Below the pieces are notes generated by a model. It ran no database searches and was not told the DNA's origin. It worked only from the letters and a program-made list of their open reading frames with translations. Shown here piece by piece: positions 20,542-49,394 of a DNA stretch of 64,000 bases; position 1 is the first letter of the stretch, and the number at the start of each line of letters is the position of its first letter. The DNA is taken from positions 825,481-889,480 of the forward strand of contig MU004232.1 in assembly GCA_010405405.1 (NCBI GenBank), read 5' to 3'. This DNA is from Microthyrium microscopicum. Lineage: Eukaryota. Made by a program: the position numbers and the translations under genes.

Positions 20542-22869
20542 ATGTTCGACAGCAAGGATCTCAAGGAGAGATTAGGCAAAATATCTGCAAAGACATTGTC
20601 CTCAGGGGGAAAGGAGTTATTTCGAACTCGCAATGAACGCAAGGTGAGCAAGTATGTTCTTTACTTCCCCTATAGTAGCTGATTATAAGTGCAGATAAAG
20701 TTCTCAGAAGAGTTTACCTACTCGCCACTGAGCGATTCACGATGCATACGACTTGTAAAGATCCACAAAGGAGCAGAGACAGATATTTTGTCGTGTGATC
20801 TCTGCGAAGCCAACCTTGAGAAAGAACCCATATTTCATGCTTTGTCATATTCATGGGATCTGGATCCTCATTTCAGTGCCTGGGACTTTGCCATGGTTCC
20901 TGACAAAAAGAAAGAGGAGAGGCCCATACTGTGCAACGGAAAGGTTTTACATATTACAATGAATCTTTACAACGCCATGTTAGAATTTCGCCGACAGGAA
21001 CGACTAGTACCTACCTGGGCTGATCAAATATCGATAAATCAACATGACGAAGAGGAGAAGATTGCGCAGTTGTCAATCATGGCGGACATATTTAGCTCAG
21101 CTAGCACGGTCATTGTTTGGCTTGGACTCTTGAATTCGGTGCGAAACAACGCTTTGGATTTCATGGAAGAGCTGCCAGAGACCAAATTGCCAGATACACT
21201 GGGAACCCTGGAGCAGAACCCGTTGAGTGGCCCGGAGAACATGGGGAAATTTGATCTCAAGAGTCTACGACGACCTTTACATCTCATAACAACAGCCTCC
21301 AGCTCGGTGGGAAATCATTATCATTGGTTTGGCGCAGTGTACGTCCTTGCGCGCCAATGGTTCTCAAGAGGCTGGACTCTGCAGGAATTTCTCCTGTCAA
21401 AAGAGGTTGTATTTCTCATGGGCAATCGAGAGATATCTTCAGCTGCCATCATCAAAACAGCAAGACAATTGTGCGGATTCTATTCCTCCGATCCCTTGTC
21501 AATACAGGTAGGCCTCAACGTTACGATGATAAGTTTGCGCAGGTTTATCGAAGGGAGAGCTAAGATGTTTGAAGAGCGCGAAAAGTTCCAGAACGGGAAG
21601 CGGTATACGGCCGAAGAATATCTAGGAGTCGTAAGAGCTAGGAAATGCAGCGTTAGGAAGGATAAAGTGTTTGCAGGCACCGCACTACTGGAACCTGGCA
21701 AGTCGCTCAAGGCAAATTACCATTCTACGACTCTCGAGGTTTATATTTCGTTTGCCCATGAACGACTTTGGCCTGAAACTGGTGTCTTTATGCTCTCTCT
21801 TGTCGGTGGTACTATGCCGGATACGGAAGGTTTACCATCCTGGATACCAGATCTGAACGGTTTTCTTCGTCCAGAACCACTGCGATATTGTAGTGCGACA
21901 AAGGTTGTACCATTGATATCTTCTCGGACCGATGACTGCTTGGTCGATGGCAGAACATTAAACCTTATGGTAGCGCAATGGGATGTTGTTGAAGAGGTTG
22001 GCGAATCAATTTGGAGCTGGACAAAATATGACGATGAGGCTTACAACGCCGACCCAATTGCCAAAATGCGCACATCAGGCTCCGTACAAAGAGAGCGATT
22101 CGGTCTGATGTTCAAGCTTCTCGAGCAGTTGGGTCCTATTTATAGTCACACAGGCGAGCGCATCACGGACGTATTCTGGCAAACTTTGATCGGCGGCATC
22201 GAAACTACGAACGAGGAAGACTTTGCACTCTGGCGAACACGATTCCAAAACTGGTTTGCTTTCACGCTTGGCCAAATGCGTGCCAACTTCTATCTGGAGA
22301 AAACGCATTCTGGGAATAAGCTGATGACCGCGTCGGCGCCCAAGAAATGGATGACACCCCTGATTGCTGAATGGACACAAATGGAAAACCGAGTGGCCGC
22401 TTTCTTGGATTTTCACGACCAAAACATCGGAAATGTTGCCGTTCCTGCTGAACAGCCACTTCGGAAGACTATTTCTGCTATCGCAAAGCGAGTCTGGGGA
22501 ACCGACAGCTTTGAGAAAACAGGCATTTTACAAGGCTCTCAAGGTTCTATGGCTGGAATGTACTCGACGGTAGCAGATCAGGAATTCTATGGACCTATCA
22601 GTCTCTTCGGCGACCGCTTCGTCAAATTCTACGATGGAAGGAGAATCTTCGTGACCAAGAACGGGTACCTTGGTGCTGGAATTGAGGATGTGAAAGCAGG
22701 CGATGTGATATGCCTCGTTCGTGGTTCAGACGTCCCATATATACTGAGACCAAGTGAAACGTCCGAGGATAGCTACACGTTGGTCGGCGAGGCATTTTTC
22801 CATGGTATCATGAGTGATGCAACTATAAAGGAGGATGTACTTGACTTCAAGAAGGTCAAAATAATTTAA
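20542..22869 (+). CDS. HET-6-like HET domain protein (intron 20644-20694)
   Basis: YSPL...IRLV, FHALSYSW, WADQISINQ, MADIFSSASTVIVWLG, WFSRGWTLQE, DKVFA, LPSWIPD, and C-terminal GRRIFVTKNGYLG...GDVICLVRG..VPYILR...LVGEAFFHGIM. Confidence 0.92.
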
Positions 22870-32158: not shown

Positions 32159-35102
32159 ATGCGCCAATTGAAGCCATCATGGCATCCTCATCCACATCAC
32201 CCAGCTCGTCACGGCCCGCCTTCTCTTCACACACGAATCCCCTCGCGCGCCTTCATTCACACATCGAAATACACTCTCTCGCGCAATAACATATCCATAA
32301 TCAGTACTCAAGTACGACCAACTACAAACCACCCAACGAATGTGCAACCCCTTCCCATCTCCCCCTTCAGCACCCATCCACGCCACCATCAAACACCCAC
32401 AGATTCAATAGTAAACCGCGTAGCATCAACAAGATGGAACAGATCGAGGCAACACGTGTTGAAGTCAGACGACACGGGGTTCCTTCCTATCGCTCCTATC
32501 CATCCTGGAAGTTTCCGTCCGAAACGTGGTGGCAGCGCTGAACCTCGTGAACCTCATGACGCGAAAACACTGCTGGGCGGCGACAATAAACGTCGTCTGG
32601 AGAGCATTGCGAAGATGGCACTTGTACAACCGACCTTTAATAAGCATATTAAGGTGGCTGATTTTAGTAATCAGAAGAGATTGGCTGTATGTTATCTGTT
32701 TTTTTTTTTGCACTTGTTTTGCCTTTTGCTTATATGCTTTCATGCTCCCCTTCAGCACGCAGTATCTAACTAGTACACAGCTTCGTGTCGGCAATACCAT
32801 TGTTACAAACGTCGAGACATGCTTCAAAAATCTTGAAGTTGAGATTCGTAAATATCGACCCTTTGATAACCTCGACATTTCTTCTGATAAATCATGGGCT
32901 ATATTTCATGGTTATGAAAGGAGGGTTCTGGATCAAGTCAAACTGCGCTTTGGCTATGCTGATGCTCGACCTGGCTCCTCTTCTGGCTCCTCCCCATATT
33001 CTGGCGGCGATGGGGACCACATACTTCAGATCGTCAGAGCGGCAGGCAACCAAACTGATCTACGAAATGCTGTGAAAATTGGACTATATAATACGATCAT
33101 GTCACACTTGTTTACGAAAAAGCAAGTTGATCGACAATCTGCTATCACTGATTGCCGGTATCCGATGGAATGGTTTCCGAGAGCAAGGACGTTGAAGCGA
33201 ACGATCCATTTGCATGTTGGTCCGACGAATTCGGGAAAGACGTATAATGCGCTTAAAAGACTGGAAGCGGCTGAGAGAGGATGCTATGCTGGTCCTTTAC
33301 GATTACTTGCTCAAGAAGTGTATAGCAGACTGAATGCCCAAGGCAAGCCGGCCTTCCTTGTGACAGGTGATGATATGCAAGAGCCTACTGCCGGAGAAAT
33401 GAAGGTCGGAGAGACTTGTGTAAGCTGCACGGTAGAAATGATAGACTATGGGCAGGAGTACGACGTGGCTGTGATTGATGAAGTTCAAATGGCAGCAAAT
33501 TCGCATCGAGGGCATGCTTGGACATCAGCTATTGTTGGAGTTGCTGCGAAAGAAGTACATCTTTGTGGTGAAGACAGAACAGTTCCTGTCATTGAGGAGA
33601 TTGCGAGGTCTTTGGGTGAAGAGCTTGTTATTCATCGGTATAAGAGATTGAGTCCTTTGGCTGTGATGAAGAATCCGTTATCTTCGATTACAGAGGTCCA
33701 AAAAGGAGATTGTGTTGTATGCTTTTCGGTCAAGCGCCTTCATGCGATGAAGCAATACGTTGAGAAGCACACAAAAAAGCGATGTGCTATCATTTACGGC
33801 AGCTTGCCTCCTGAGGTTCGGGCTCAGCAAGCCCGGCTCTTCAACGACCCTGATAACGAGTATGACTATCTGGTTGCTAGCGATGCCGTCGGTATGGGTC
33901 TCAACCTGTAAGTTGTTCTACCCTGATCAAAATAACGTGCTAACTCGCACAGCGCTATCGGTCGTATGATCTTCGATACTGTTAGCAAGCGAACCAGAGA
34001 AGGTCTTCATCCCCTCACAACCCCCGAAATCCGCCAAATTGGCGGCCGAGCCGGTCGATATCGAACATCTGCCCAAGTCGAACCATCCACACTTCCTCCA
34101 ACCGCCGACACCAACTCATCATCCGATAGCCTCTACCCAGCTGCACCACCACCACCCGAGCCGAGCAAAATCGGCCTCGTCACAGCCTTTGAGCCCGCTG
34201 CCCTCCGCAGAATCCGCGAAAGCATGTCTACAGACCCAGAACCAATCAAAAAAATCGGCATCTTCCCCACCAACGACATGATCGAAACCCTCTGCAGCTA
34301 CTTCCCCACCGGTGTCCCCTACTCGTTTATTCTAGCACGTATTCTCGCCGTCAGCCAAGTCAGCGATCGCTTCTTCTTCTGCCAGCTAGGCGAAACCATA
34401 CAAATCGCCGACATCATACAGCACATCACCGACCTATCCATCGCCGACCGAATCAAAATCTGTTTCGCGCCCGTCAACGTGCGCACAGAATCACTTGTAG
34501 AGCTCATCAAGGAGATGGCATGGGCTATATCGAGACAAAGCGGTGGTGGTGTGCTTGAGCTGAAAAGCTTGGATTTCAGTGTCCTTGATATGGAAGTCAA
34601 GGCGGATCGTGGGTATTTGAGTATGTTGGAGGATTTGCACAAGGGGTTGGTGCTGTATAATTGGATGAGTTTTCGATTTCCGGGCGTGTTTACACAGCGG
34701 CCGCTGAGTCAGAAGGCGAAGGGGCTGGTGGAGGAGAATATTGATAAGTGTTTGAGTCAGTGGAGGCATGTGGATGTGGATAAGTCGAGGGTGAGGACGC
34801 CGAATGTGGCGGAGCCGAGTATTGAGGATGTTGTTGCGTTGAGTGAGAAGAGGTTGGGGATGGCGAAGGAGGAGGACGGGAATGAGGTTGTGGTAGCGGT
34901 TGCGGATGATGGCGAACAGGGTGAGGAGCTGATGCCGGAAGATGATGCTGAGGAGTATCCTGAACTCAAAGAGGATCTTGAAGCTGAGGAGCTCGAGGAA
35001 CAACGTGGAGAGAGCACAGAGTTCGGCTCGATCGGCAAGATTGAGGTTTCTCAGGATGGCTTGAAGGCCCCAAACTCTCGAGACAATATTGTTCATCCTT
35101 GA
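32159..35102 (+). CDS. SUV3: Mitochondrial ATP-dependent RNA helicase Suv3 (introns 32687-32780 and ~33908-33952; start codon uncertain)
   Basis: PMEWFPRAR..KRTIHLHVGPTNSGKT, AGPLRLLA, VAVIDEVQM, IYGSLPPEVR..QARLFN, VASDAVGMGLNL, QIGGRAGRY. Confidence 0.95.
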
Positions 35103-36835
35103 AATATTGGAAGGTCTAGGCAAGAGTTTTCATTGCACTTACACTCTTGCACTTACACTGTAACATATTGAATTGTACATCATACATAGAATTTCTAAGC
35201 CCGAGAGAGACGACGCCAATGAACGAAACACATCATCAACGCCCTCATGGTCCCATAAGGCTTTGACAGTTCTAAGCGCCCATCAAGTGTGATTCTACCC
35301 ATCGCACTCGTTGTCTAGTGGTGAACATCACCCATGAAAAGCACATGCTCTATTTCCAGCTGTCTTTTATAACTTTCCATTTGATCATGCAGTCGACAGA
35401 AAGGTGAATGTCCTACATAAGCGTCGCATATGGGAACCAAGTATGTTAATGGGAACACCAGACTTATTGTCCATTCACTAGGAACTTGACGTCGTCCAAT
35501 AAGTCACTTTAACACAAAACCGCGCAGAGTCCTCTGGAGCTTTCTGAATAGACCCGATCCGAACACGGAAAAGAAATATGCCTGGATTTGGGTAGATAGA
35601 GCTCAGTGACTGGGAGTTTTCAACTTCAACAACCATAATACCATTAACACTTTCAGACCGTGTAATCAGATCTAGAGTCTTAATATGACGATCTAACCCT
35701 TGTATCCAAACAATTAACAAAAATGAAGGGCCCACTCCCATCGAGTGCGATATCTACCACCACATCTTTCAAAGAGCGTGCCTTCTGATTCATCGGATTT
35801 GGTATTTCAAGAGCACTTCCATGTACTTAGGGGAAAACAAAGTAGTCAATAACAGAGCTTAGCGTATGGGCACCTAAAAAGCTGATGGGAAGGCGCTACT
35901 TATTTGGAAGGTGGTTGTAATGCGCCTGGGAAGCTATGTGACTGTCTAGGTATACTAATACATCAACTGTCTAAAAGTTGATGACAAGTTATTTACAAGT
36001 ATAGAATATAGACTGGCAACACTGCCACCTCAGTGAAACATGACAATCCTATATGCTAATCATAGAAAAGAATTATAGACAAAAAGAGCAGTGAGCACAG
36101 AACCCACGTATATTCTAAGAATAACACTTTCTACCTACTACTGCTTGAATATGTTATTTAATAGACTTTATCTAAGTCAAGTCTTCGCTCAGTAAAGAAA
36201 GGTAAGCCAAATACATCCACCGCCTCGAAGCATAAAACATGCACAACCAAAAAAAGTAGTTGATCAATAGATCATTTGTGGAGATGCTGGGAATTGAACT
36301 GAAATTACTATTAGGTTTGAATTCGAAGAAGATTGAAGTAGTGCACGGACCCCAGGACCTCTCTGGCATTTGGTTAGTTTACGTTCTTTCAAAGTAGATG
36401 ATGTAGAAATCTTACTCCAGAATCGACATTGTGAAAATGCGAAGGAAGCATCATACCCCTAGCGATGGTATTAGTAACTGCTGGTTCAGTGGGCGGCTGC
36501 AGTAACAAACCTAGACCACATCCCCTTTGCAGCTAGACTAATACACAGAATGGCATACCAAACGTGCATTTTCGTCTAAGAAATTTGCAAGAAAGTTCGA
36601 GCATTAATTCCCCGCATTCGAATATATCTAACCTAAAATATAGCACTTGGGTCGAAGAGCGTCGCATTAACAAGAAATACCTATTCTTCATTCAGAATAC
36701 ATACCTACAAGAATAGGTCCAGATATACCTTTTTTGTTTCGTGAGTTACAGTCTCTGCGATGTCAAAAGCCAAGCTCAACGTTCGCGAATTGGTACCCAA
36801 GGAGGCGAATGTGCGCCACATCTCGGCAACCGATG

Positions 36836-37032
36836 GACAAAATAAATGGCGTGCCCCCATCGACTTCGAGAGCTCCTACACAACACGCGCTTTGGTATCG
36901 AGTACTTCATTCATCATATATAGTGTCCAGGCTTGGATCGTTTATCGAATGCGATGGAAAGTATAACACCGCTTAATTAAAAGCTTTCGTGGGAGCCAGC
37001 AAGGTTGATGGGAGAACGCCAGTTATTTTGTC
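36836..37032. mobile_element. MITE-like element, copy A (197 bp core, imperfect ~40 bp TIRs starting GACAAAATAA)
   Basis: Begins GACAAAATAAATGGC and ends GCCAGTTATTTTGTC. Aligns end to end with the reverse complement of 55726-55920 (hand count about 151/195 identical, one 2-nt gap). No credible ORF. Confidence 0.75.
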
Positions 37033-38435
37033 ATGCGGTTGCTCGGATATCCATAGTATGCATACGATATCATAGAATCCAAGCCTTGTCCACTCTTTTC
37101 AACATGTTTCCGGGCATTTAAAGACTATCTTTCCCTATTCACTCCAAACCAGTATATCGCAGGCTACCTACAACAGCCTATGCGCCACCCCCGAGCTTTG
37201 TGCGCCACAGTCAGGGCGGCCATCATCATTCGAATATTATACCAACATAAAGGGCACTCAGGACTGTAAAAGTAATATATTTGACAATTCTAGTCCACAG
37301 GCTTCGATTGAGATCAGCTTGCATTGAACATATCATTACCCTATGAAAGTGTGCCACTTTGCGATTCTGGCGTTCAGGCCACGTTCATCTTAAGGACACC
37401 AAACTTGCTCTTTGATATGACAGCATGTTTGACACGATTAAGATGCATCTAGCCTCACTTCGAAACTAATAGTGGGCAAAGTCTTTTCTCAAATCGCTGT
37501 GCTTCAAGCTCCAATTTTGGCTTGACACTGGGCAATGAACTGGCAAAATGACTGACCTGCCCTCATGAATTTACTAAGCTCCCATCCGCCACGCTATAGT
37601 ATCGAGCGATTTCTTTCTGAAAGAATGTGTTTGATTCTGGACAGTGTATCGAATGCGATCAGGACCATAGCGTCCTTTTCATAGAAGCATTGGTGGGAGC
37701 CGTGAAAGTTGAGAGGAGCAGCTCATTGATAGTCTTTTCAGCCTCATTCTTCGGACAATACCTGTTCGAATCAAAAGCGACACCTCTCCCATCGCACTCT
37801 ATGACTACCATAACGTGCGTTTTCAATCGAGTGCTATGGTAGCCATCGAATGCGAATAATTACCAGTCCCTTGGCGAGATAGGTTGAAGATAACAAAAGG
37901 TTGTGCAGGAAGAGTTTCTTGAACGTTCTCCAATGCCATGGTGCCGATGATTAGACTCGATTACACCAGGACTAAACAATCTTAAGTCACTGAAAGCAAT
38001 CATTCAATTGTCTTCTATCTACTCGAGGTTGCGGTTAGCTCGTCTGCTATGACATGCTCAGCATTCAACACCATTGGCAAAGCCTATCTTTCCCCTGAGA
38101 GTTAGGTGAGAAATAGGTCACTCGGCATCCGGCACCTCATTTACGCATAAAGTATCGCCTCCATCCTTCTGCCTGCACCTTCTTCTCCGTAGCCTTGAAG
38201 CAGAGTCAAGACTCTGATTGATTAGTTGCGGAGAAGCGTGACAATGTTATATTGCGAAGAGAAGATTTTGCTCATACTTAAACTTCAATTATGAGTGATT
38301 GACGAAAAACACATCCCTTTGGGCTAAAGAAGGACGTAAACCGCCGATTTTGAAAGGCAACCACAATTTGCTTCTCAAACCCTACGCCTCCCAGACACTC
38401 TTTACTTCTACTAATTGGATGCGGTCTCCGCTTAG

Positions 38436-38591
38436 TTAACACTGGGGACACTGGTACATGTCCCATCTCGTAAACACGCACTGTTCCTGTGGGCATATCA
38501 TGTTGTTCGCCTTTGCCCTGTCACATTTGGTTGTCTCTGTTTTCCTTCCGCCATGGACGCAATGGTAGGTTTTGACATCGATGTCACACAT
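38436..38591 (-). CDS. Small Cys/His-rich putative zinc-binding microprotein, array copy A (51 aa)
   Basis: MCDIDVKTYHCVHGG...C...C..QC...CPQC; paralogous to 40884-41069. 5'-UTR intron 38630-38763; TATA at 38915-38921. Confidence 0.8.
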   Translation of the reverse strand: MCDIDVKTYHCVHGGRKTETTKCDRAKANNMICPQEQCVFTRWDMYQCPQC

Positions 38592-39426
38592 TTCTTTGAG
38601 TGTATGAATAGGGTATGCTGTTCGTTGTCCTGAAGTCTTGTTTAGCGGTTCACGATCAAGAAGTCTCATTGCGTCTTGCCCTTCTGTAGCTTCAAAAAGA
38701 CTACAACAATTTATATTTGCAATGAAGGCAAGCTGTAGCTAAAAAGCATGCGAATTGTCTTACCCTTGGGTTGTTAGATCGTAAAGTTGAGTCTTATCAA
38801 CCGAACAAATAGCAGTATACTTATGGTTTGGTATGATTTTTTAACGGCACTTTGTTCGCTGGATGTCAGTCAGATTGTTTTTGCATTTCTTCTCATGTTC
38901 TACAAAGACCTGATATTTATACGAAAATGCACACTCATCAAGCGCTGCTCACTAACAGGTACCTAAATGACGTTAATAATGGCGGTAAAAGGTGAGTTTC
39001 TCCTTCATGGATGGCATTAACATCAATATGCGAACGGTTAGATACCCACAACAGCCTCCAGCTTGAGACTGGCCCACAACATAAGTACTTCGTAGCCAGT
39101 GCGGATGGAACAGAATGAGAATGGACCTCTTTAATTATGATACCCAGTGTTTCGGGCAATGCTATATGCACGTAATGACCAACCTGAAAACATTTGACCG
39201 TATAATCATCCTCCAAGCAACGGAACCTTCTCTCGCACAACCGTTCCCCTGTGTACATGATTGCCGACTGTTGTAAAATGACCGTATATGCACCCCCAAG
39301 CCATGAACAACTAGCAAATTGGGCCCCTAACACCCAAATAGATCATCAAATTCCATAATAATGATATGACTCGCAGCAAATTGATCTTGAAATGCAAAGG
39401 CCTGACAATCGTCTGATATGTTGTCC

Positions 39427-39648
39427 TCAATGGCCATTAACACCATTAGTCTTCTTCTCTCCATTTGATCCGTTCGTTGCCGGCTGGTATCTACGTTTGC
39501 AACGATCGCTGCAGTACTCGTCGGTTCGGTCGTAAGTAGGACCACGCACGTCGCTGCATGGCTCTTGCAAACTCATGTCGTGCAAGACGACGTGTACCTC
39601 CTCCCCTTCATGGCCACAGGCATACATAAACTTCCAAGACGTACACAT
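39427..39648 (-). CDS. Small Cys/His-rich putative zinc-binding microprotein, array copy B (73 aa)
   Basis: MCTSWKFMYACGH...H...C...CSDRC. 5'-UTR intron 39682-39804; shared leader box 39914-39935; TATA 39969-39975. Confidence 0.75.
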   Translation of the reverse strand: MCTSWKFMYACGHEGEEVHVVLHDMSLQEPCSDVRGPTYDRTDEYCSDRCKRRYQPATNGSNGEKKTNGVNGH

Positions 39649-40883
39649 CCCGAGAAATGCCGAAGACTGTTCTGGCTTGTCCTGAATACTGATCAGTCTC
39701 GATTCCACAAAAGGCAAGTGGAAACTTGGTCAGCAAGCAGAAGGCATGAAAGCATGCTGAAATGTTGCACTGCGAAAGAAGCTGTAAGGTTTAGAAAGAC
39801 ATACCGTGAGTTTTGTTTGAGGTTGGAGTAAATAGTTTTCGATTAAGTTGATAGGAAAGAAAATCTTTGAGTCTTGAATTGATGTTGTTTGTGCTTTGAT
39901 GGTATCTGTTCTTTGAGGCTCTGCCTTATTGTTCTGGTATTTCTTTTAGTATCGCAGATACGACTTTCATTTATACGAAAGACACCAAACCTACAAACGC
40001 TGCTGAATCTGTTTACCTATTGATGCTGGTAAAAGCTCAACCCATCTTTTGTTTACTTCATTCACATTGGCATCTCGCATTGACATGCATGCAAACAGCC
40101 TTGACAGCTAACGAGCTAAATGAACAACGAGCTTCCAAACACTGCGTTGGCTCTAGTCTAGTTCGTTCAGTCACCGTACGCTCTGTGACCTCCCCGATTA
40201 CTTAGATACCTAGCTAAATAACTATTATCTATAATGAGAAGTGAGGCTTATGCTTATCGATAGGACTGATGACACCATCATGAGTGCGTGTCATTAGCAA
40301 CGTCAGTTATCTCGTGAAGTGGTTGGAGAAAAAGGAGGTCTATATCGCTATAGATCGATAAACATGTAGAAATTGAAATAGACGAAGTAGCTTTGTAGAC
40401 CAATGGCAATATCATGTTTGTCTAGTTCCCAGTGTATTGGGCTATGTGTGTCTGACGTCAATCAAGGCGGCAGAAGGTAAGCTCACCTTGAAACGTTGGC
40501 ATTGATGTTAATATGCAAAAGGCGAACACGCATATATCAAGTTTTGACTTGGAAGTGTCATCAGGTCCAGTAGTTAGTAGGCTCATTCGATGGAAAAGAA
40601 TGAGAATGAACTTGCTCAATTTGGTGTGCAGTATATTGGGATATGTGTCCCTATATGCCAATGATACATGGATTGAGCTAAAATGATAGCATTGCCAAAG
40701 TCAAATTACCAACAGTTCCCAGGTGTGATCCCATTACCAACCAGAAGTATAATGACCGTAAAAACATCCTTCAAGCCAAAGTAGGACTTGGACCACCAGG
40801 GTCCATTTCAATCAAGCAGTACAAAATGATATACGGTGAAGCCTCCTTGCTGTCCGAACACAAACGGGTAAAACCTCTCTTCC

Positions 40884-41069
40884 CTACTCCTTTGATGCAT
40901 TCCCTTCCTTGTAACACTTGGGACACGATTTCATGTTGAATCTAGTAATGACACAGTGCTTTTGATCACACAGGATGCCGCCATTGTTCCATGCCTTCTC
41001 ACACTTCACGGTGTGACGGCCTACTCCGCCGTGCTTGCAGAGGTAGGTCCATACGTCGATGTCACACAT
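40884..41069 (-). CDS. Small Cys/His-rich putative zinc-binding microprotein, array copy C (61 aa)
   Basis: MCDIDVWTYLCKHGG...CEKA...C..HC...CPKC. 5'-UTR intron 41104-41237; leader box 41346-41368; TATA 41402-41408. Confidence 0.8.
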   Translation of the reverse strand: MCDIDVWTYLCKHGGVGRHTVKCEKAWNNGGILCDQKHCVITRFNMKSCPKCYKEGNASKE

Positions 41070-42099
41070 TGTGTAGTTTGTGAGGATGGACGTTTTTCTT
41101 GTCCTGCAAAATTGATTAGCTATTGATAGTCGAGGTTATCGCACAACATCCTCTCCTGAACCGTAAAAGCATCTCCATATCTGAAAAATAGGAAAGGGAC
41201 GTAATGAAATGGGTCTGCAAGATTTCAAGAGCCTTACGTTGAGGTTTGATCGAAGTGAAAGCAGGGTCTTTTGTAAGGATTAATGAGAGGCGATGTTTGA
41301 GCTTGATAGTGGCCGGTGATTGTGTTTTGATAGAAGTTTTTTCTCTGAGGCTCTGCCTTGGTTGTTCTGATGTCTCTTCCAATGTCGCAGATAAGCCATT
41401 TATTTATACGAAAGATATCAGATCCACAAACGCTGTTAGATCTGTTTGGCTGTGAGTGAAAGTGGAATGTCAAACCATCTTGCGTTTAATATATTCACAT
41501 GGACATGGAAGCGAACCGCGGATGGGACAAGTAATTCGGCGTGCTTCCAAACACCGCGTTGGCTCTAAACCAGATCACTCATTGAGTGGTCACTTGTTTA
41601 CTCTCCAACTAAGTAAATGACTACATACTTTACGTAGGTAGGTAAAATATTACATGCAATATGCAGTAGATCACTGTTACCAGAAGGATAGAAACAGTCA
41701 TTGTGGGCCATAGGGAGCTTTATTTATCATGTTAATCGGTAGGCAAAAGGGCCTTTGCTCACAGTAAGACTTCAAATAACTCAAAGAGAAGGTATTTGTA
41801 TCAAATAAAGATAATATCATGCTATTTTACTTCCCAGTGTATCGGGATATGTGTTTTCGCTTCCAGTCATGTATAATATGACCAGATGACCATCCTCCCT
41901 ACCTAAGCAACAGTACAATTGAATTCACTACAGCTCGCACGAGTACATGAATCCCGATCATAATATAAAGACCACAAAAGATTTCATCAAGCCACAAGCA
42001 ATTGGACCACCAGGGTCTAAAATAATCAGAAGCCAAGCATCATTGATCGCGAACCCACACCTGTTGTCGAGTGATTCTCCATGCCCTTCTTCACTAAGT

Positions 42100-42294
42100 T
42101 CACTTTTTGGCGAAACGCTCTCGTGTCTTGCCTCTTTTGTTGACGCATTCCCAGCAGTTGAAGCCATCTACATAGATCGGTCTATGTTTAGTTCGATGAT
42201 CGCACAGTTTTCGCACCCTCTCCGCCTTCTCGCATGCTTTCGGAGCCTTTTCTCGGCACCCGCATTCGTAATCGCAATAGTACATGTCGCACAT
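42100..42294 (-). CDS. Small Cys-rich putative zinc-binding microprotein, array copy D (64 aa)
   Basis: MCDMYYCDYECGC...CEKA...C...CWEC. 5'-UTR intron 42323-42462; leader box 42579-42601; TATA 42635-42641. Confidence 0.78.
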   Translation of the reverse strand: MCDMYYCDYECGCREKAPKACEKAERVRKLCDHRTKHRPIYVDGFNCWECVNKRGKTRERFAKK

Positions 42295-43474
42295 CTTGAA
42301 GGCTCGTGGAGAGTAAGATTTTCTGTTTTGTATTGTGACTTGATCAGAAATTGCCAGATATGAAATAGCAATCGCGTTGTTTGTTCTGCTGATCAGAGAT
42401 ATAAAATCAAAGGCATTGTAGTGAAGGCTCGCAAAGATTTGGCAACAGGTTTAGGGACTTACCAGGGGATGTGTGAAGCCTAAATTAGCCTGACTGATTT
42501 GATCGAGTTCAAAGGGTGGGGATTTTGAAGAGTTGAAGTTTTGTATCGTCTTGTGGGGATTGAAAGCAATGTGTTCTGTGAGGCTCTGCCTTGGTTGTTC
42601 TAAAAACATCTACCAAATGAAAGATTAACCATTGATTTATATATGTTGCCAGCAAACGCTGGCTTGACATGTTGCATCATGGTGTTGGAGATGTTTTCGT
42701 TTGATGTTAAGTTTGTTACTGTCGATATTCAAGCGTAAGAAAAAATCAAACCGCTCCATAGCCTCAAGGTGACCCTATCTCACCAGCAGTGAAGCACTAA
42801 AAACCATTAACAAACTGCTTCAAGAACAAATTGATAGTCTTACTAGCTCATGGGCATCTCCAGGCACTTACGGCTCCATGTCCACTAGCAAGCACAAGCC
42901 AAAGTGAAGTTAAATGAGCGGTAGGATATGAAGAAGAAGTCCAATAGCGAGAGCTTTTCCTGCAATTCCATGGCTCAATACCTCCAAACAATACAAAGCG
43001 GCTGACTGAAGCCAACGCGAAATATCAATTGCCAATCAAGCGTTGTGGAGGAGTAACCTTTCTACACTGTGGTATTGACTACAGATCACAGACCATACTG
43101 AAGCTTCGCCAACGAAATATTTGACTATAACCTGAACTTTGCTACCCGTTGCATATTCCAGTGCCCGGTCTAAATCAAACAAAACCAGAATGAGCTCCCA
43201 GGTGTCAGATTAGGATTGAAGTTACACAGCGCACTATTGATCACCGCAACAGCTATCGCCGCAATCAATCAATCGCATCGGTTTACAACATTGCTGAACA
43301 AAGCTGCCCAAGTTGCAGCCAAGTGAATGGCCAGAGACATGCATGCACGAGCTGTCACAATGTGTGGCCACTTTACAGATCCTGCTGCGTGCATTCTCAA
43401 AAATGATATAGCTGACGAAGCTTTAAACCTTCTAAAAATGGATCATTGAGAATTAGCATTACTATTGACAAAGC

Positions 43475-43927
43475 TTAAGCAGGCGTGATAGCCGCAGCAA
43501 CCAAATACATCGTCGATCCTGCAAGACCGCCGGTTCCCCGGTAGAATCGTACGTTCGATACGGCTGTAAACGTGCCAGTTCTGAGCCAGTCTGCACTATT
43601 CTGAGCAACCACCAACTTCTGGACGTCATAGACAAAATAGACAAGGTTTAGACCTCTGGCATAGGCGGTAAATTGATACTGCTGTCCAGGTACCAGACTG
43701 GTAAATGTCTGCGATACGAGAGCGCTATAGCCAGCATCATCAATCCCGTTATCCGCGGTTAATTGGAAATAGTAGTTGCCGGAAATACGATCGCTAATGC
43801 AAACAACAACGTTGGCAGTGACGACACCAGATGGGTTCTTGTCAATATCAACGTTCCATGGGTCTAAAGAGCCAATTTCAAAGTCACCGTTGGCGATTAA
43901 AGGGACTGCCGACGATGATGCAGCAGC
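43475..43927 (-). pseudogene. CBM4/9-like (galactose-binding-like) carbohydrate-binding module remnant, cut off from the upstream gene by stop codons
   Basis: Minus-strand frame reads AAASSSAVPLIANGDFEIGSLDPWNV...SGNYYFQL...VSQTFTSLVPGQQYQFTAYARG, immediately preceded by in-frame TGA at 43928-43930; no own start codon upstream of the domain. Confidence 0.55.
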
Positions 43928-44127
43928 TCATGAGGATGCTGCGCTGCTTAATGACACATCGAATGAGGTAGGGAAACTTGTGGTATCGGAGAAGCTTAGG
44001 GAAGTGACTAAACTGATAAATCCGATGAAGTAGCTATCGCGAGGCTGCCGATTTGGGGCAGATGCAGAACTAGGCAAAAAGTAAGATCAGGCCACAAGTT
44101 TCATTCTACGTATTTTATAGGGGTCCT

Positions 44128-45846
44128 TCAGACAGTAGCACTACTGCTGGGCGCTGAAGTTGTTGAGCTTGAAAGACCTGACGACATTGTGGAAGGACTG
44201 GACGATGTAGCCGAGCTTGATGAATCTGAAACAGTAGAACTGCTGCTCAGAGCCACACTTGTGGAACTCGAAGTAGCTGAAGAAGTGATTGTGCTCGAAA
44301 CCGAACTGGACTCGCCGCCTGAGCATGTAAGATTATAGACCTGCAGATCGGAGACAGTATCAGTGCAAAAAATATCACCAGTCTCAAATGCTTTTGCAGC
44401 TGCCTCACATAATGCGCTTTCGCTGATCCAGTATACAAAACATGGAGCAGTCGTGCAATAAGCTTGACAAGCAGATAATGAGGGCGCTGGGCCAGCAAAA
44501 AACACCACGTCAGCAGCAGCATATGATATCGTACATTCACCTGCTCCGTGATAGACATCGATAAAAGAGCAGGTTGGAGATGTGGAGATCGACGATGTTG
44601 TTGAACTGGTCGTCGAAGGCGATAAGCTGCTTGGGTCCGTTGAGGAGCTCGTGGATGAAGAGACATATGAAGGTGATGAGCTGCTAGGTATTGTAGATGA
44701 GCTTGTGGATGTAGAAACAAACGAAGATGATGAGCTGCTAGGCATCGTAGAGGAGCTTGTAGACGAAAAAACAATTGAAGATGATGTAGCTCCAGAGCAG
44801 GCCAGATCGTAGAATTTGTATGGAGAGCTCGCGTCCTCCTTAAAATTGCCTGCCACCGGCGTCTTGTATAGGTAGCAGATTGAGCTTGACAGTGCAATAG
44901 ATTGGCATCCAGAAGTCGCTTTGCACAATCCCACACACCCCGAAAGTGTATGATAGGCAGCAGAGGTGGAATCCGTGAAAGATTCAGGTGAGTTCTTGTC
45001 GTACCCTGATATTTGTTAATATATCGCCATGTCCAGAGCTAACAGATTTTGAAGTGACCATTTGATCTGTTACAGGAACCATAACAATCGATTGTATTAG
45101 GGAGGCAAATCATGGGAGCAGCCAAATATAATGGCAGCTACCACGATTTTACTAAGCTTTGACTGCAAATGCTGCCTTTTGGAACATTGTATTCTTACCT
45201 ACGAGACCGCAACTCAAGGCGGATGGAACGGAACTGGAAGCTGTCGATGAGCGAGAAAGGCTGCTGGATGCCGACGTGATTGTTGATAGAGTCGAAGAGA
45301 GAACAAGGCTGCTGGATGATGTGACGTGTGCTGAAGATGTCGATGATTGCACAAGACTACTACTAGATAGCAGAGCGTGCGTTGATACTGTGGAAGATCG
45401 AAGGCTCGAAGAGGCAGAGCGAGACGGGCTTGCTGAGACGGAACGAGTAGAGACGCTTGAGTGGGCTAAGCTAGACGAGGATGCTGAAGACGTAGCACAG
45501 CTTCTATCATAGAAAGCGTAAGGACTTTCAGAGTTTGGATTGAAATTACCAGTTCTGGAAACGCGGTGAGATTGAGTCAACCAAAAGAACACGTAAAAGC
45601 TTACACTGGTACAGTATAATGTAGGCATGTGTTGTCCCCAACAGCAAAGCTGGCGCAAGAACTGTCTGCCAAACAATGCGCTCCACATGCTTTAATGGTC
45701 GCGAGAGATCCTGTTTGACCGAAATATGCGTTTGTTGAGAGGTCATATCCGTAGCCCCCGCAGATAGGTTGGGCGCGTTTGAGAAGAAAGTCAGTCGAAA
45801 GGGCAGAACAGACCGGCAAGGCTACTAAAAGCCCGAATGAATACAT
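44128..45846 (-). CDS. Secreted Ser/Thr-rich protein with PAN/Apple-like Cys domains (introns 45555-45604, 45006-45198)
   Basis: Signal peptide MYSFGLLVALPVCSA plus KR; repeated CG..GYD...C...C....C.S.A.....C..Y...V.GNF....SPY.FYD..C modules separated by Ser-rich linkers. Confidence 0.75.
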
Positions 45847-46727
45847 TAGAAGAAGATTATGACTGTAAGAAGGTATAGAGACTGCAAGTTGACAAGGGAA
45901 AGAAGGCTGTATACCCAAAACCGGGAGTGACATCTCGCCTGCTTTAATACATAGGACTTTTGCCCAATTCTTGACCATTGTGAGGATTCGGTGACCGTAG
46001 AATGGGCCAACGTGCAATGCCAGTGGCTTCAGCCTTATTGTTATTGTTCAGCTGGGATACGGCCCGCCGAATCAAGATGCTTCGCCTATGGTTATGGAGG
46101 CCTTAACAGCCCTATACGCGATAGGGGAGGCTCGGCTGGTTAGCGAAGTGCTTAAGCTGGAAAAGAATTTCTCCTCCTGCGTTGGCCTTATTGTTAATAC
46201 CTCGATTCTAATACGGTGTCTAGGTATGGTGAAAGGAGTCAAGAACAAATGTCTCCTGTAACTTCGTGCCATGTGCACCTGATTGGAGTTAATAGAATGT
46301 TGCGCCTGTGTGATAATAAGCAAGTCTCTACTTCTAAGTCCTGAGGCTGTGGACGGAAATAGCTTACCCGTACTATCGTATATCGCTTCTCGGAAGCAGA
46401 GTTGAAAAGAAAGACCAGTCTGAGGAATTGATAGTCCAATATTGATTATTTCGTGTTGCGGAGCTGAAGCAACGAAAAGGGAGTGACTAAGAGCGAGACC
46501 AACGTCAACCATGCGATTGCTGTAAACTTCACAGTTCGAAATCTTCAGACCCATCATACCTGATAGTTCTGTCTTGAGTGATATAGATCGAAATTGTGTT
46601 TACAACAAGCTAGGACCGCAAGCTCCAGATTCAGTGCTTGAGCAGTCGGTAGTAAAGCAGCTCTTTCGGAACGATCATGAGCAATAAGACTGAACTAATG
46701 GTATTGGCAAGAGTGAAACAGCTTCTA

Positions 46728-48971
46728 TCATTTCCTCGCCTTTCGCGCCATTCGCTTCTTCGCAATGATCCGAGATCTTTTAGCTAGGTTATTCCGTTCT
46801 TCGAGGGACTTTCCATCCATGGGAGCAGCATCGCCTTTTTTGGACTTATCCCTATTGTTGGGTTTCTCACCCTGTTTGAACTTGGCCCCTTGCCTACCAT
46901 TCGCACTTTCACCGCCAGCACGAGAAGGTTCGGACCTCTTCCGCTTCATTCCCCGACGACCTGCGTCCTGCCGCCCGCCATCCTCTGCATCACCGTCATC
47001 TTGCCGGCTCCCACGCGGCATTTTCTGGATTCGTTCCGCGCGACGCGTCACTACGTTGACATTTTCCAGCGCAAACTCGACGATGAGCCGTCTCTTCCTG
47101 TCCTCATCCACTACAGCGCCCTTCTTGCCCGTACTAGCCGCTTTATAGTCGACTTGATGTCCATTCAGCCAACGTAGCCCCATGAGCGCATTGCGATGTG
47201 TATAGTATTCAATGAAACCATAGCCACGACTCCGTCCACCGCCTTCCGATTCCTGGATCTTAGTGCCCTCTTTGCTTTCAACGACGACCTTAGCTTGCCG
47301 CACAACGCCCTTGCCTTTGAGCCGGCGCTCGCGTTCTGCGAGTTTCATTTCTTCACCGCCTCGTGCGGTTTCTTCTTTAGACAGCTTTTTACGCTTCTCG
47401 TTGGTCACGTCTTCTGCGAAACCGACGATCGCTTTGCGTGCGAGAGCTTTCAAGTCTTTGGAGTTCATTGAGCGTGGTAGGTTGCGGACGGAGAGACGGG
47501 TCAAGGAGAGATGTAGAGAGGGATTAGTTTCGACAAACTTTTTGCGCTGCTTGGCGGAGGCTTCCCGCATGGCAATGTCAGACGGTGAGAGTTTGCTGTA
47601 TAGTGGTGATTTTGAGGTTATGCGGCCTTCGTGGAGGAGATAAAGACGGCGCTTGTCGCGGTCACGGGCGGAGCGCTTTTCTACGCCTTCATCGCGTAGC
47701 CGTTCTGCTTCGTCCTTTTTGACGGCTTTAGTGACGATCAGGACACGGCCTTGGAGAGTGTATTTGCCGCTGGGATCTGATGCTTCGTCTTGGAGGACTG
47801 TGTGGCTGGTGGCTCCATTTTTAGCTCCGGCCATGCTGCTGTCGCTTTTGGGTGCCTCGCGGGTGCATGTGTCGGCCGAGGTTTTGTCCATGAAGCAGAC
47901 GAAACCGGTGCCTCTTGATTGTTCGGTGACTTGGTTATAGACTACTCGGCTGTATCTTACGTTGCCGAATTGCTCAAAATGTTCCGTGAGCTCATCATCG
48001 CCGCAAGTAAATGGTAGGTTGCGGACGAATACCGTGCAGTCTGTATTGTCGTAGCGTTTCTTGGGAGCATCCTGAGAATCATCTTCATCTTCATCGCCTT
48101 CGCTGTCATCTTCCCAGTCGTTCTCCTCTTCGGGCTCATCCTCCTCGCCATCGCTACTAGGCAATTCCGCACCAAAACCTAGCTCAGGATCGTCAATATC
48201 CATAGCTTCCTCATCTTCATCATCACTGTCTTTCTCCACAGCTTCTTCGCCATTACCCACCTCTTCATCTTTATCACCTTCCTCCTCCGCTTTCGCCTTC
48301 TCCCACGTCTCTCGATCCGCAGCCCAATCCACCGCCAACGTACGTCCGTCCACCATCTTCCCATTCATATCCGCCACCGCTTTCTCCGCATTCTTCTTGC
48401 CTCTGACAATCACAATGCCAAAGCCCAACAGCTTGCCACCCTCGCCCCTTGGTAATACTGCTTCCTTGACTTTTCCAAAGCTCAGAAACATGTGTGCCAG
48501 CTTTTCCTTGGAGTCTACACTCCATGGCAGATTCCGCACAATCAGCTTCGGCACGCTGACTTCCTTCTTACCATCAGCCCCCTTGACTATCTTCGCACCG
48601 TGCTCATCTTGCCGTTTCCGCACTTGCGCGCTATCAACTTTGATCTTTTTTCCAAGCAGGACTGAGCCGTCAAGCTCGGTTTTGGCTGCAGTCGCATCAG
48701 CTATGTCGGTATAGGTAACAAAGCCATAGCCGCGGCATTGTGTTGTGACCTTATCAAGGACGGCGACTGCGTGTTTCAACGGGTAGGCTTGTGAGAAGTG
48801 AGCGGCGAGGTCTGAGGAGGTGGTAGTTGGTGGAAGGGCGGATACGAAAAGCGTGCGCGGATCTTGAGGCTTTTGGGCGCCATTGGAAGATGTTGTGTTC
48901 GAAGGAATGGTGGAGACGGCAGTGCTGTCACCAGCTTCGTTGAGCTTGCGTTTCTTGTTTTGTTTGCCCAT
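46728..48971 (-). CDS. NOP4: Nucleolar RRM protein Nop4 (RBM28), 60S biogenesis
   Basis: Four RRMs (TLFVSALP/RGYGFV, LIVRNLPW, VFVRNLPF/RGTGFVCF, LSVRNLP/RGYGFIEY), acidic linker, DKRRLYLLHEG, NPSLHLSLTRL, RRLIVEFALEN; start at MGKQNKKRK. Confidence 0.95.
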   Translation of the reverse strand: MGKQNKKRKLNEAGDSTAVSTIPSNTTSSNGAQKPQDPRTLFVSALPPTTTSSDLAAHFSQAYPLKHAVAVLDKVTTQCRGYGFVTYTDIADATAAKTELDGSVLLGKKIKVDSAQVRKRQDEHGAKIVKGADGKKEVSVPKLIVRNLPWSVDSKEKLAHMFLSFGKVKEAVLPRGEGGKLLGFGIVIVRGKKNAEKAVADMNGKMVDGRTLAVDWAADRETWEKAKAEEEGDKDEEVGNGEEAVEKDSDDEDEEAMDIDDPELGFGAELPSSDGEEDEPEEENDWEDDSEGDEDEDDSQDAPKKRYDNTDCTVFVRNLPFTCGDDELTEHFEQFGNVRYSRVVYNQVTEQSRGTGFVCFMDKTSADTCTREAPKSDSSMAGAKNGATSHTVLQDEASDPSGKYTLQGRVLIVTKAVKKDEAERLRDEGVEKRSARDRDKRRLYLLHEGRITSKSPLYSKLSPSDIAMREASAKQRKKFVETNPSLHLSLTRLSVRNLPRSMNSKDLKALARKAIVGFAEDVTNEKRKKLSKEETARGGEEMKLAERERRLKGKGVVRQAKVVVESKEGTKIQESEGGGRSRGYGFIEYYTHRNALMGLRWLNGHQVDYKAASTGKKGAVVDEDRKRRLIVEFALENVNVVTRRAERIQKMPRGSRQDDGDAEDGGRQDAGRRGMKRKRSEPSRAGGESANGRQGAKFKQGEKPNNRDKSKKGDAAPMDGKSLEERNNLAKRSRIIAKKRMARKARK

Positions 48972-49394
48972 GATTGTTCTTGTTGGTGGTGATGGAGAGA
49001 GTCTGGGAATTTTCGGAGTTGAAATTTTGTCGGTGATGGTTTCTGGGATATTTTTTTTAGCGGGGAATTGGAAAATGACTGATTGAAGCAATTCCAGCAC
49101 CCACCGTATGATTATTACACTAAATTTTCCAAATATCCATAGAGAACGTGATATAAACCTAGGACCATGCTAAATACAATACTTTTACAGGCCCGCTTGG
49201 TTGCGTGGTTAAGAACAGAGGCTTGAACTTGGGAATAAAAGGGTGGGAAGCTAGTCCTTATTGGGGCTAGCGCCATCCATTAACTTCTGCTGCTCAACAC
49301 CAAAGCCATCACGGTTCAATCCTCATATCTTCTAATCTTATTCAAGATCGAGGTAGCACCTGAGCTGAGGTGTTTCGCCTCAGTGGCTGTAAAT

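Follow-up and report, generated by a model that had tools for sequence, protein, structure and literature searches.

Tandemly duplicated genes for small Cys/His-rich proteins

In silico analysis of a 64,000-nt stretch of the Microthyrium microscopicum genome (contig MU004232.1, positions 825,481 to 889,480; referred to below as the window, with position 1 as its first letter) revealed an array of four tandem units, each carrying a tiny open reading frame (ORF) on the minus strand. These ORFs, designated A to D, are in all likelihood translated genes, and their products probably constitute a new lineage-restricted family, which belongs to a well-known general kind, small intracellular Cys/His-rich proteins that probably bind zinc. 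The coding sequences (CDS) and the distribution of Cys and His in their products are as follows.

38436-38591, minus strand: CDS of gene A, stop codon included, 51 aa; Cys at 2, 11, 23, 33, 38, 48 and 51, His at 10 and 13
39427-39648, minus strand: CDS of gene B, 73 aa; Cys at 2, 11, 31, 46 and 50, His at 13, 19, 23 and 73
40884-41069, minus strand: CDS of gene C, 61 aa; Cys at 2, 11, 23, 34, 39, 49 and 52, His at 13, 19 and 38
42100-42294, minus strand: CDS of gene D, 64 aa; Cys at 2, 7, 11, 13, 21, 31, 47 and 50, His at 33 and 37

Translation of the ORFs of the window returned exactly the four minus-strand frames of 51, 73, 61 and 64 aa, with the same start codons, that a sequence-only reading of this DNA had picked out. 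All are single-exon and co-oriented and start with ATGTG (M-C); the ATG-to-ATG distances along the array are 1057, 1421 and 1225 nt, for a total of 4.4 kb. The ligand skeleton described in that reading is found in every copy: M1-C2-x6-Y9-x-C11-x-[H/C]13 occurs in all four proteins, with His at position 13 in three of them and Cys in D, and it is followed in each by a Cys or His at 21-23 (C23 in A, H23 in B, C23 in C and C21 in D), a Cys at 31-34 and a distal motif that is CxxC except in B, where it reads CxxxC. Gene B is the most divergent copy and has a Gly/Asn/Lys-rich tail.

Cys represents 6.8-13.7% of the residues (7/51, 5/73, 7/61 and 8/64) versus 1.2% in the long ORFs of the window. A, B and C each have an odd number of Cys (7, 5 and 7). 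The products, of 6-8 kDa, have grand average of hydropathy values of -0.57 to -1.15; they contain many charged and several aromatic residues, with W, Y and F present in all four copies, and acidic residues occur at positions 3-5 in A, C and D. Their isoelectric points (pI) include 9.1 for D, which is strongly basic with a Lys/Arg-rich tail, 8.7 for C and 6.0 for B, which is acidic. A signal peptide is absent from all four, in agreement with the sequence-only reading, the maximum over a Kyte-Doolittle window of 9 residues being at most 0.84 and the apolar runs in the first 35 residues being at most 3 residues long. Kyte-Doolittle hydropathy detected no membrane segment in any of the four proteins, and no Kex2-type repeats were found in them.

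Evidence that the ORFs are coding

The view that these are real genes, put forward from the letters alone, is supported by several evolutionary marks of coding, that is open frames, an excess of synonymous change, third-position composition and invariant residues. With a local stop frequency of 0.059 per codon, the chances that the frames remain open from the homologous ATG are 0.045, 0.012, 0.024 and 0.020, the product of which is 2.6e-7. A and C, which alone among the pairs permit a codon-level alignment (51 codons), show 18.8 synonymous differences for 27.7 sites and 41.2 non-synonymous differences for 125.3 sites, which corresponds to proportions of synonymous (pS) and non-synonymous (pN) differences of 0.68 and 0.33 (Fisher p=0.001). 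The G+C content at third codon positions (GC3) is 0.56-0.64 in all four ORFs, versus 0.38-0.43 in any phase of the spacers and 0.51 in the long ORFs of the window, and in each ORF the other two frames have lower codon scores than the annotated one.

The environment of the start codons is of the same kind. A purine occupies position -3 in all four genes, and no ATG is present in the spliced leaders between the conserved start block (see below) and the CDS; when counted from an arbitrary cut at TATA+30, those of B and C are also devoid of ATG and those of A and D have one each, located just past the cut and upstream of the start block. For comparison, the four predicted introns contain 9 ATGs in 531 nt. 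Finally, C2, Y9 and C11 are invariant across three independent lineages, ungapped over positions 2-13, and three invariant columns were obtained in only 4 of 200,000 composition-preserving shuffles when B, C and D were compared and in 1 of 200,000 for A, B and D. The four ORFs are thus, as judged from these sequence features, very likely to be translated genes. A sequencing run with the same species label, which may or may not be RNA, contributed no contig to 38300-42800, an outcome that bears on expression neither way.

Organization of the units

Each ORF was expected to sit in a duplicated transcription unit of its own, and alignment of the four units indeed delineates four transcription unit-like modules with a TATA box, a conserved start block, a 5'-leader intron with consensus donor, branch and acceptor, and the CDS. 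On the minus strand, the order is a CAGCG(T/C)TTG element located 12-19 nt ahead of a TATAAAT box, the TATAAAT box itself, the start block, a C/A-rich leader, the intron, an exon-2 leader of 28-38 nt and the CDS. The first T of TATAAAT is at 38921 (A), 39975 (B), 41408 (C) and 42641 (D). The start block, CAGAACAA(C)CAAGGCAGAGCCTCA, occurs ca. 37 nt past the TATA box in B, C and D, is degenerate in A and likely corresponds to a putative transcription start region. Introns were predicted from consensus signals found at positions that are homologous across all four units, with donors GTAAG/GTATG at 38763, 39804, 41237 and 42462, acceptors CAG at 38630, 39682, 41104 and 42323, and a branch-like motif CT(G/A)A(T/A).

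38915-38949, minus strand: core promoter of gene A; CAGCGCTTG element at 38939-38949, TATAAAT at 38915-38921
38630-38763, minus strand: predicted 5'-leader intron of gene A, 134 nt; donor GTAAGA, acceptor CAG
39914-40004, minus strand: promoter module of gene B; AGCAGCGTTTG at 39994-40004, TATAAAT at 39969-39975, start block with AAGGCAGAGCCTCA at 39914-39927
39682-39804, minus strand: predicted 5'-leader intron of gene B, 123 nt; GTATGT ... CTGAT ... CAG
41346-41437, minus strand: promoter module of gene C; AACAGCGTTTG at 41427-41437, TATAAAT at 41402-41408, start block at 41346-41359
41104-41237, minus strand: predicted 5'-leader intron of gene C, 134 nt; GTAAGG ... CTAAT ... CAG
42579-42663, minus strand: promoter module of gene D; CAGCGTTTG element at ca. 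42653-42661, TATAAAT at 42635-42641, start block at 42579-42592
42323-42462, minus strand: predicted 5'-leader intron of gene D, 140 nt; GTAAGT ... CTGAT ... CAG

The AAGGCAGAGCCTCA sequence of the start block occurs three times in the window, always within the array, for 0.59 occurrences expected, and none of 100 shuffles reached three. Three matches to AGCAGCGTTTG with at most one mismatch were likewise all located within the array, but 13 of 100 shuffles equalled this count, so that the upstream element is supported by its position in the alignment and not by its frequency.

Two further ORFs overlap these units. In gene A, an in-frame ATG within the predicted intron would give an ORF of 77 aa (38436-38669, minus strand) if the intron were retained, an extension that does not exist in the other units. 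A 138-aa ORF on the plus strand (41947-42363), antisense to gene D and its leader, has no Pfam match and no counterpart in the other units and is probably spurious.

Duplication history and conserved segments

A search of the 64-kb window using nhmmer with the four-unit alignment retrieved these four places only, and a protein profile run against 1577 six-frame pieces of this window retrieved the four ORFs alone, the next match having an E-value of 0.16. By these alignments the units are true duplicates. Further blocks are common to the three spacers (D to C, C to B and B to A) and are missing both downstream of A and upstream of D, a distribution that fits three full repeats and one partial repeat produced by unequal crossing-over.

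38992-39426, minus strand: spacer from B to A, corresponding to the 3' region of B and the far upstream region of A; blocks in common with the other two spacers
40055-40883, minus strand: spacer from C to B; palindrome GGACCCTGGTGGTCCAA at 40788-40804, ACACATATCCC.ATA.ACTG motif present twice
41488-42099, minus strand: spacer from D to C; palindrome GGACCCTGGTGGTCCAA at 42002-42018 with 1 mismatch, at an equal distance from the stop codon

The 17-nt palindrome lies 80-98 nt past the stop codons of C and D (2 matches for 0.10 expected) and is degenerate in B. Its folding is no better than that of shuffled sequences (z=-0.59 and +0.59), and it could be a candidate protein-binding site or 3'-end signal. 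The ACACATATCCC.ATA.ACTG motif, of ca. 20 nt on the minus strand, is found at 40430-40449, 40629-40648 and 41835-41854; the two copies in the C-to-B spacer are ca. 200 nt apart, and this repetition partly explains why unit C is the longest.

Pairwise alignments of the units, performed segment by segment and scored against shuffles (z), indicate that conservation is unevenly distributed. For the promoter and exon 1, similarity is high between B and C (z=14.5 and 16.3), C and D (z=10.6) and B and D (z=6.9), and weak with A. At the DNA level the CDS are alike in A and C (z=11.7) and to a lesser extent in C and D (z=4.1), all other pairs having z values of 2.9 or less (2.9 for A/B, 2.6 for B/C and 0.7 for B/D). 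The 300 nt that follow the stop codon are alike in B, C and D (z=6.0-8.8, with 6.0 for B/C and 6.5 for B/D). In the intron interiors, with the splice signals aligned in register, z is 1.5-3.2 and no pair is significantly alike; the signals were thus kept while the intron filler drifted.

At the protein level, A and C had been described as close paralogs and are indeed 53% identical, with none of 2000 composition-preserving shuffles reaching their Smith-Waterman score. The accompanying statement that B and D keep little beyond the ligand skeleton agrees with the finding that, outside the N-terminal motif, both are barely or not significantly similar to the other copies; the observed score was reached by 5 of 2000 shuffles for A/D, 44 for C/D and 78 for B/C, all three being marginal. 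Synonymous sites are saturated even between A and C, with an estimated number of synonymous substitutions per site (dS) of about 1.8, which indicates that the array is old. Given this age, the fact that promoter and leader are 77% identical between B, C and D must be due to constraint or conversion and not to recent duplication. Repeat-induced point mutation (RIP) was ruled out as the cause of the divergence, since the RIP indices of the array (0.74 for TpA/ApT and 1.28 for (CpA+TpG)/(ApC+GpT)) equal those of its flanks.

Search for relatives and known families

No confident match to an already characterised family, an outcome that the sequence-only reading had named as contrary to it, was found in Pfam or in protein-library searches. 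For the four proteins no Pfam-A family reached its gathering cut-off; matches were listed at E<=10, HMMER filters being able to drop those above about 0.1, and the best were DUF5472 (12.7 bits for a cut-off of 25), DUF2116 (12.4 for 26.8) and EGF_DL_JAG (12.8 for 27), while D had none. A look-up of the exact sequences among ca. 15 billion predicted proteins found none of them. A word-seeded search of 5.8 billion protein clusters with C alone yielded no candidate; with the four-sequence alignment, 4 candidates were obtained at near lengths and 66 at longer lengths, none with E<=10. A HMMER profile of the four gave no match at E<=0.001 against 1.84 billion representatives, a setting in which a profile of 66 positions has low power for distant relatives. 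Two metagenome loci matched by a single protein were rejected as pattern artefacts because they share only CKHGGVGR, with frames that contain stops or unrelated sequence. In the ESM Atlas, C (0.88) and D (0.92) have the same first match, a 66-aa cluster of 61 members mostly from Ascomycota, a lead suggesting that annotated relatives beyond the reach of HMMER may exist. Full-text searches by words turned up no published description of such a family, which is weak evidence as such searches are blind to sequence.

The profile of the four proteins had 8 matches at E<=10 among the 177,635 sequences of the PDB, and the top five are uS14/S29 chains (E=0.027-0.2). With copy C alone, LCDQKHCVITRFNMKSCPKCYKE aligns over ca. 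23 residues to the zinc knuckle of uS14 (E=0.029-0.033) and the next match (E=0.5) lies in a ubiquitin-ribosomal-protein fusion, at its zinc-ribbon end. The uS14/S29 family is characterised by a CxxC ... CxxC zinc quartet. Since the first uS14 knuckle is not conserved here, these matches are read as a motif-level resemblance to a strand-CxxC-aromatic zinc knuckle rather than as homology.

Genomic context

The array is contained in an 8.3-kb stretch (35130-43475) in which no ORF of at least 150 aa occurs. Its surroundings include the following genes, of which those for the SUV3 helicase and the RRM protein are housekeeping genes; the sequence-only reading had proposed the interval to be accessory.

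32463-35102, plus strand: SUV3-type RNA helicase gene, flanking the array on one side
43475-45015, minus strand: Ser-rich gene with a weak CBM_4_9 match, flanking the array on the other side
46728-49169: RRM protein gene, beyond the Ser-rich gene

Pfam searches with 81 six-frame pieces of at least 45 aa from 35103-43474 gave no match reaching cut-off; a sub-threshold eRF1_2 match in the leader of B (18.4 bits for 27.1) was taken as chance. No Rfam family was detected at E<=1 in 35000-43600, which gives no support to a small nucleolar RNA host or any other non-coding RNA. A transposon-fragment origin, the other outcome that had been named as contrary to the gene interpretation, was not found either: domains are absent (0/81), there is no RIP signature and the four tandem copies are the only ones in 64 kb.

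Other observations were made in the neighbourhood. The region 35130-38300, which follows the SUV3 gene, is an unusually long empty intergenic region of 3.2 kb and 42.6% GC, devoid of any ORF of at least 150 aa, Pfam match, similarity to the array or RIP signature. On the other side, Ser/Thr-rich ORFs with Cys-containing blocks (44128-45978, minus strand) and an adjacent piece with a CBM_4_9 match of 25.1 bits (43475-43927; cut-off 25.9) probably represent a multi-exon gene for a wall- or surface-type glycoprotein directly upstream of the array. Finally, an ORF of up to 726 aa located ca. 16 kb from the array (20689-22869, plus strand) has a HET domain (PF06985, E=2.5e-23); HET genes are typical of filamentous ascomycetes, and this ORF, taken together with the intron signals, points to a fungus of that group.

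Proposed function and alternative readings

The reading favoured here, in which real genes encode zinc-binding adaptors, has in our judgement about an even chance of being right as a whole. It would involve four co-regulated protein-coding genes forming a lineage-restricted family, the result of ancient tandem duplications in a filamentous ascomycete. Each gene would be transcribed from a TATA promoter with the CAGCG(T/C)TTG element and would have two exons, with an ATG-free, C/A-rich leader from which one intron would be spliced, followed by a single-exon CDS. The products would be small, hydrophilic and non-secreted. Apart from one Tyr, nearly all of their conserved residues, which number 7-8 in A, C and D, are Cys or His. 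These proteins are proposed to fold around zinc, most likely at two tetrahedral sites, the N-terminal one liganded by C2, C11, H/C13 and C/H21-23 and the C-terminal one, knuckle- or ribbon-like, by C31-34, C38/39 where present and the distal CxxC. Because the proteins are hydrophilic and devoid of secretion signal, with an odd number of Cys in A, B and C and His in the pattern, intracellular metal ligation is favoured over disulfides, and zinc binding is probable in view of the ligand spacing and of the borderline uS14 knuckle match of C.

Zinc-stabilised modules of such a size usually act as binding surfaces. The four proteins may likewise act by binding a macromolecular partner (a nucleic acid or another protein), and the surface that separates the ligands would be free to diverge between paralogues. 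The basic D and C would suit nucleic acid or acidic partners and B is acidic; from these differences in pI the paralogues probably differ in partner. The shared and constrained promoter points to common regulation, so that the four genes would respond to one signal.

Several observations weigh against this reading. Codon-usage log-odds are near zero, with B, C and D ranking 56, 75 and 77 of 163 small control ORFs, and the differences between A and C at codon positions 1, 2 and 3 (18, 14 and 28) form a skew which alone has a p value of 0.07. Conservation is higher in promoter and leader than in the CDS, a pattern that also fits an RNA or the promoter as the selected part. For A/B and B/D the similarity lacks significance, the observed score being reached by 230 and 664 of 2000 shuffles, respectively, and leave-one-out hidden Markov models (HMMs) built from A+C, A+C+D or A+C+B miss the omitted B or D among the 1577 six-frame pieces of the window. 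Copy B has 5 Cys and 4 His only and no equivalent of Cys-38/39, which makes it short of two Cys found in A and C; furthermore, other small ORFs of the window, presumably spurious, reach 10-12% Cys. As for the fold, two AlphaFold2 models have a mean predicted local distance difference test score of 43.3 and 43.0 and are uninformative, and recognition values of the ESM Atlas for two copies are 1927 and 2026 versus 2300 typical of known families. The only PDB matches at E<0.1 are eukaryotic uS14/S29 chains; these are borderline and were obtained, among single proteins, with copy C alone, A, B and D singly having no match at E<=10 against the PDB sequences. In the uS14 alignment, the matched ligands are limited to the distal CxxC and to the second of the two Cys in the first knuckle, whose first Cys has no equivalent.

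Part of these points would be explained if the units were transcribed and the ORFs were not functional proteins, selection acting on the promoter and leader, either as a non-coding RNA or as a regulatory repeat, and the ORFs being drifting remnants of one ancestral ORF. Such a situation would produce what is seen in the best conserved segments, promoter and exon 1 (z=14.5-16.3 for B/C), next to a CDS of B not significantly like the others in DNA, and would be in line with the failure of the leave-one-out HMMs for B and D, with unremarkable codon-usage scores and with the lack of any protein relative, including among the 15 billion predicted proteins searched for the exact sequences. It is nevertheless unlikely, being hard to reconcile with four open frames at a homologous start (joint p=2.6e-7), pN lower than pS in A/C (p=0.001), raised GC3 in all four ORFs, invariant C2, Y9 and C11, leaders free of ATG and no Rfam family at E<=1.

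If the ORFs are translated, a second alternative is that they encode disulfide-rich or processed bioactive peptides (toxin, antimicrobial, effector or signalling molecules) with non-classical export, the fast divergence being explained by diversifying selection. Fungal tandem families of small Cys-rich proteins are typically secreted effectors, and the orphan family described here shares with them a tandem arrangement and a Cys scaffold that is kept while the sequence between Cys diverges fast. Against export, none of the four proteins has a signal peptide or an apolar segment, Kex2-type repeats are absent, and the 8.3-kb interval contains no gene for a tailoring enzyme, protease or transporter; in addition, His in the pattern (H13 in three of the four) suits metal ligation better than disulfides, as do the odd Cys counts of A, B and C (7, 5 and 7). 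These features make the peptides quite unlikely. A related candidate, a precursor of a fungal ribosomally synthesised and post-translationally modified peptide, was rejected. Such precursors have tailoring enzymes as neighbours and a leader/core layout with processing sites, and in 35130-43475 there is neither an ORF of at least 150 aa nor a Pfam domain.

Intracellular metal binding could also take the form of metallothionein-like buffering of Cu, Zn or Cd, with copy number amplified for metal tolerance, as tandem amplification of metallothionein genes is known for yeast CUP1. Small, Cys-rich, intracellular proteins encoded by tandem genes with a shared promoter would agree with this proposal. 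Their Cys content (6.8-13.7%, with one CxC, in D, and no CC clusters), the several aromatic and many charged residues, and the age and divergence of the copies, in which pS is saturated and which are not recent identical amplicons, make it improbable, all the more as no Pfam metallothionein model was matched even at E<=10.

Finally, the genes might descend from a duplicated gene for a ribosomal zinc knuckle (uS14/S29-like) and act at or near the ribosome or RNA. To the five leading PDB profile matches out of 8 (E=0.027-0.2) and the alignment of copy C (E=0.029-0.033) can be added a similar size, 51-73 aa versus 48-57 residues in the PDB chains, and the basic character of C and D (pI 8.7 and 9.1). 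This descent is highly improbable given that the E-values are borderline over ca. 23 residues, that A, B and D singly have no PDB match and the four no ribosomal Pfam model at E<=10, that the alignment shows no conservation of the first CxxC of uS14, and that the second-best kind of match is an unrelated zinc ribbon, which suggests motif-level convergence.

Comparison with known systems and significance

Among described systems, the closest functional analogy to the zinc-binding adaptors proposed here would be the Ecl1 family, that is small zinc-stabilised regulators acting through partner binding. In fission yeast this family has three genes (ecl1, ecl2 and ecl3) whose products are reported to be shorter than 100 residues, are predicted to bind Zn2+ via conserved cysteines and are induced by starvation or stress (PMC10038150). 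The two groups have in common several paralogous genes and intracellular proteins of less than 100 residues with Zn2+ binding predicted via cysteines. They differ in that there is no sequence relationship, in that the ligand pattern here starts at Cys-2 and includes His, and in that the genes occur here as a tandem array with a shared promoter. A Pfam model exists for Ecl1, and it was not matched by the four proteins even at E<=10.

The resemblance to uS14 (S29) and to the zinc ribbon of eL40 is limited to a similar size and a C-terminal strand-CxxC-[YF] knuckle; in contrast, the N-terminal MC..Y.C.H half has no counterpart in these proteins, the first knuckle is not conserved and no Pfam match exists. 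Fungal metallothioneins are small, intracellular, Cys-rich and sometimes tandemly amplified proteins, which are defined by a very high Cys content in CxC, CC or CxxC clusters and by few aromatics. Here, unlike in metallothioneins, Cys are far less dense, CC clusters are absent and CxC is limited to one in D; many residues are aromatic or charged, and the paralogues are old and have diverged. With effector-like small secreted cysteine-rich proteins of fungi the family shares its orphan status, small size, tandem duplication and a Cys scaffold with fast-diverging loops, but it differs from them by the lack of a signal peptide in any copy, by His in the pattern and by odd Cys counts in A, B and C. 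Tandemly arranged orphan families are a common occurrence in fungal genomes.

The array is at this stage a well-supported gene prediction to which a biochemical property is attributed, and not a demonstrated system. Its noteworthy features are a ligand at residue 2, a promoter that is better conserved than the protein and the absence of any match in protein databases, so that it represents a lineage-restricted family with a Cys/His skeleton from residue 2 and no match to described domains. There is a slim chance that the four products define a previously unrecognised fold family of intracellular two-zinc microproteins with the first ligand beside the initiator Met, encoded by a co-regulated array that diversifies everything but the ligands. 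If so, this diversification would fit paralogues tracking changing partners, for example in intracellular conflict (mycovirus, allorecognition or toxin-like interference), rather than housekeeping metal chemistry. The array is compact, and its 4.4 kb could be removed in one step, which makes it a tractable system. If expressed, the four genes would provide an example of genes overlooked by size-filtered fungal annotation and would enlarge by one family the short list of small intracellular zinc-binding regulators known in fungi, of which Ecl1 is the best studied.

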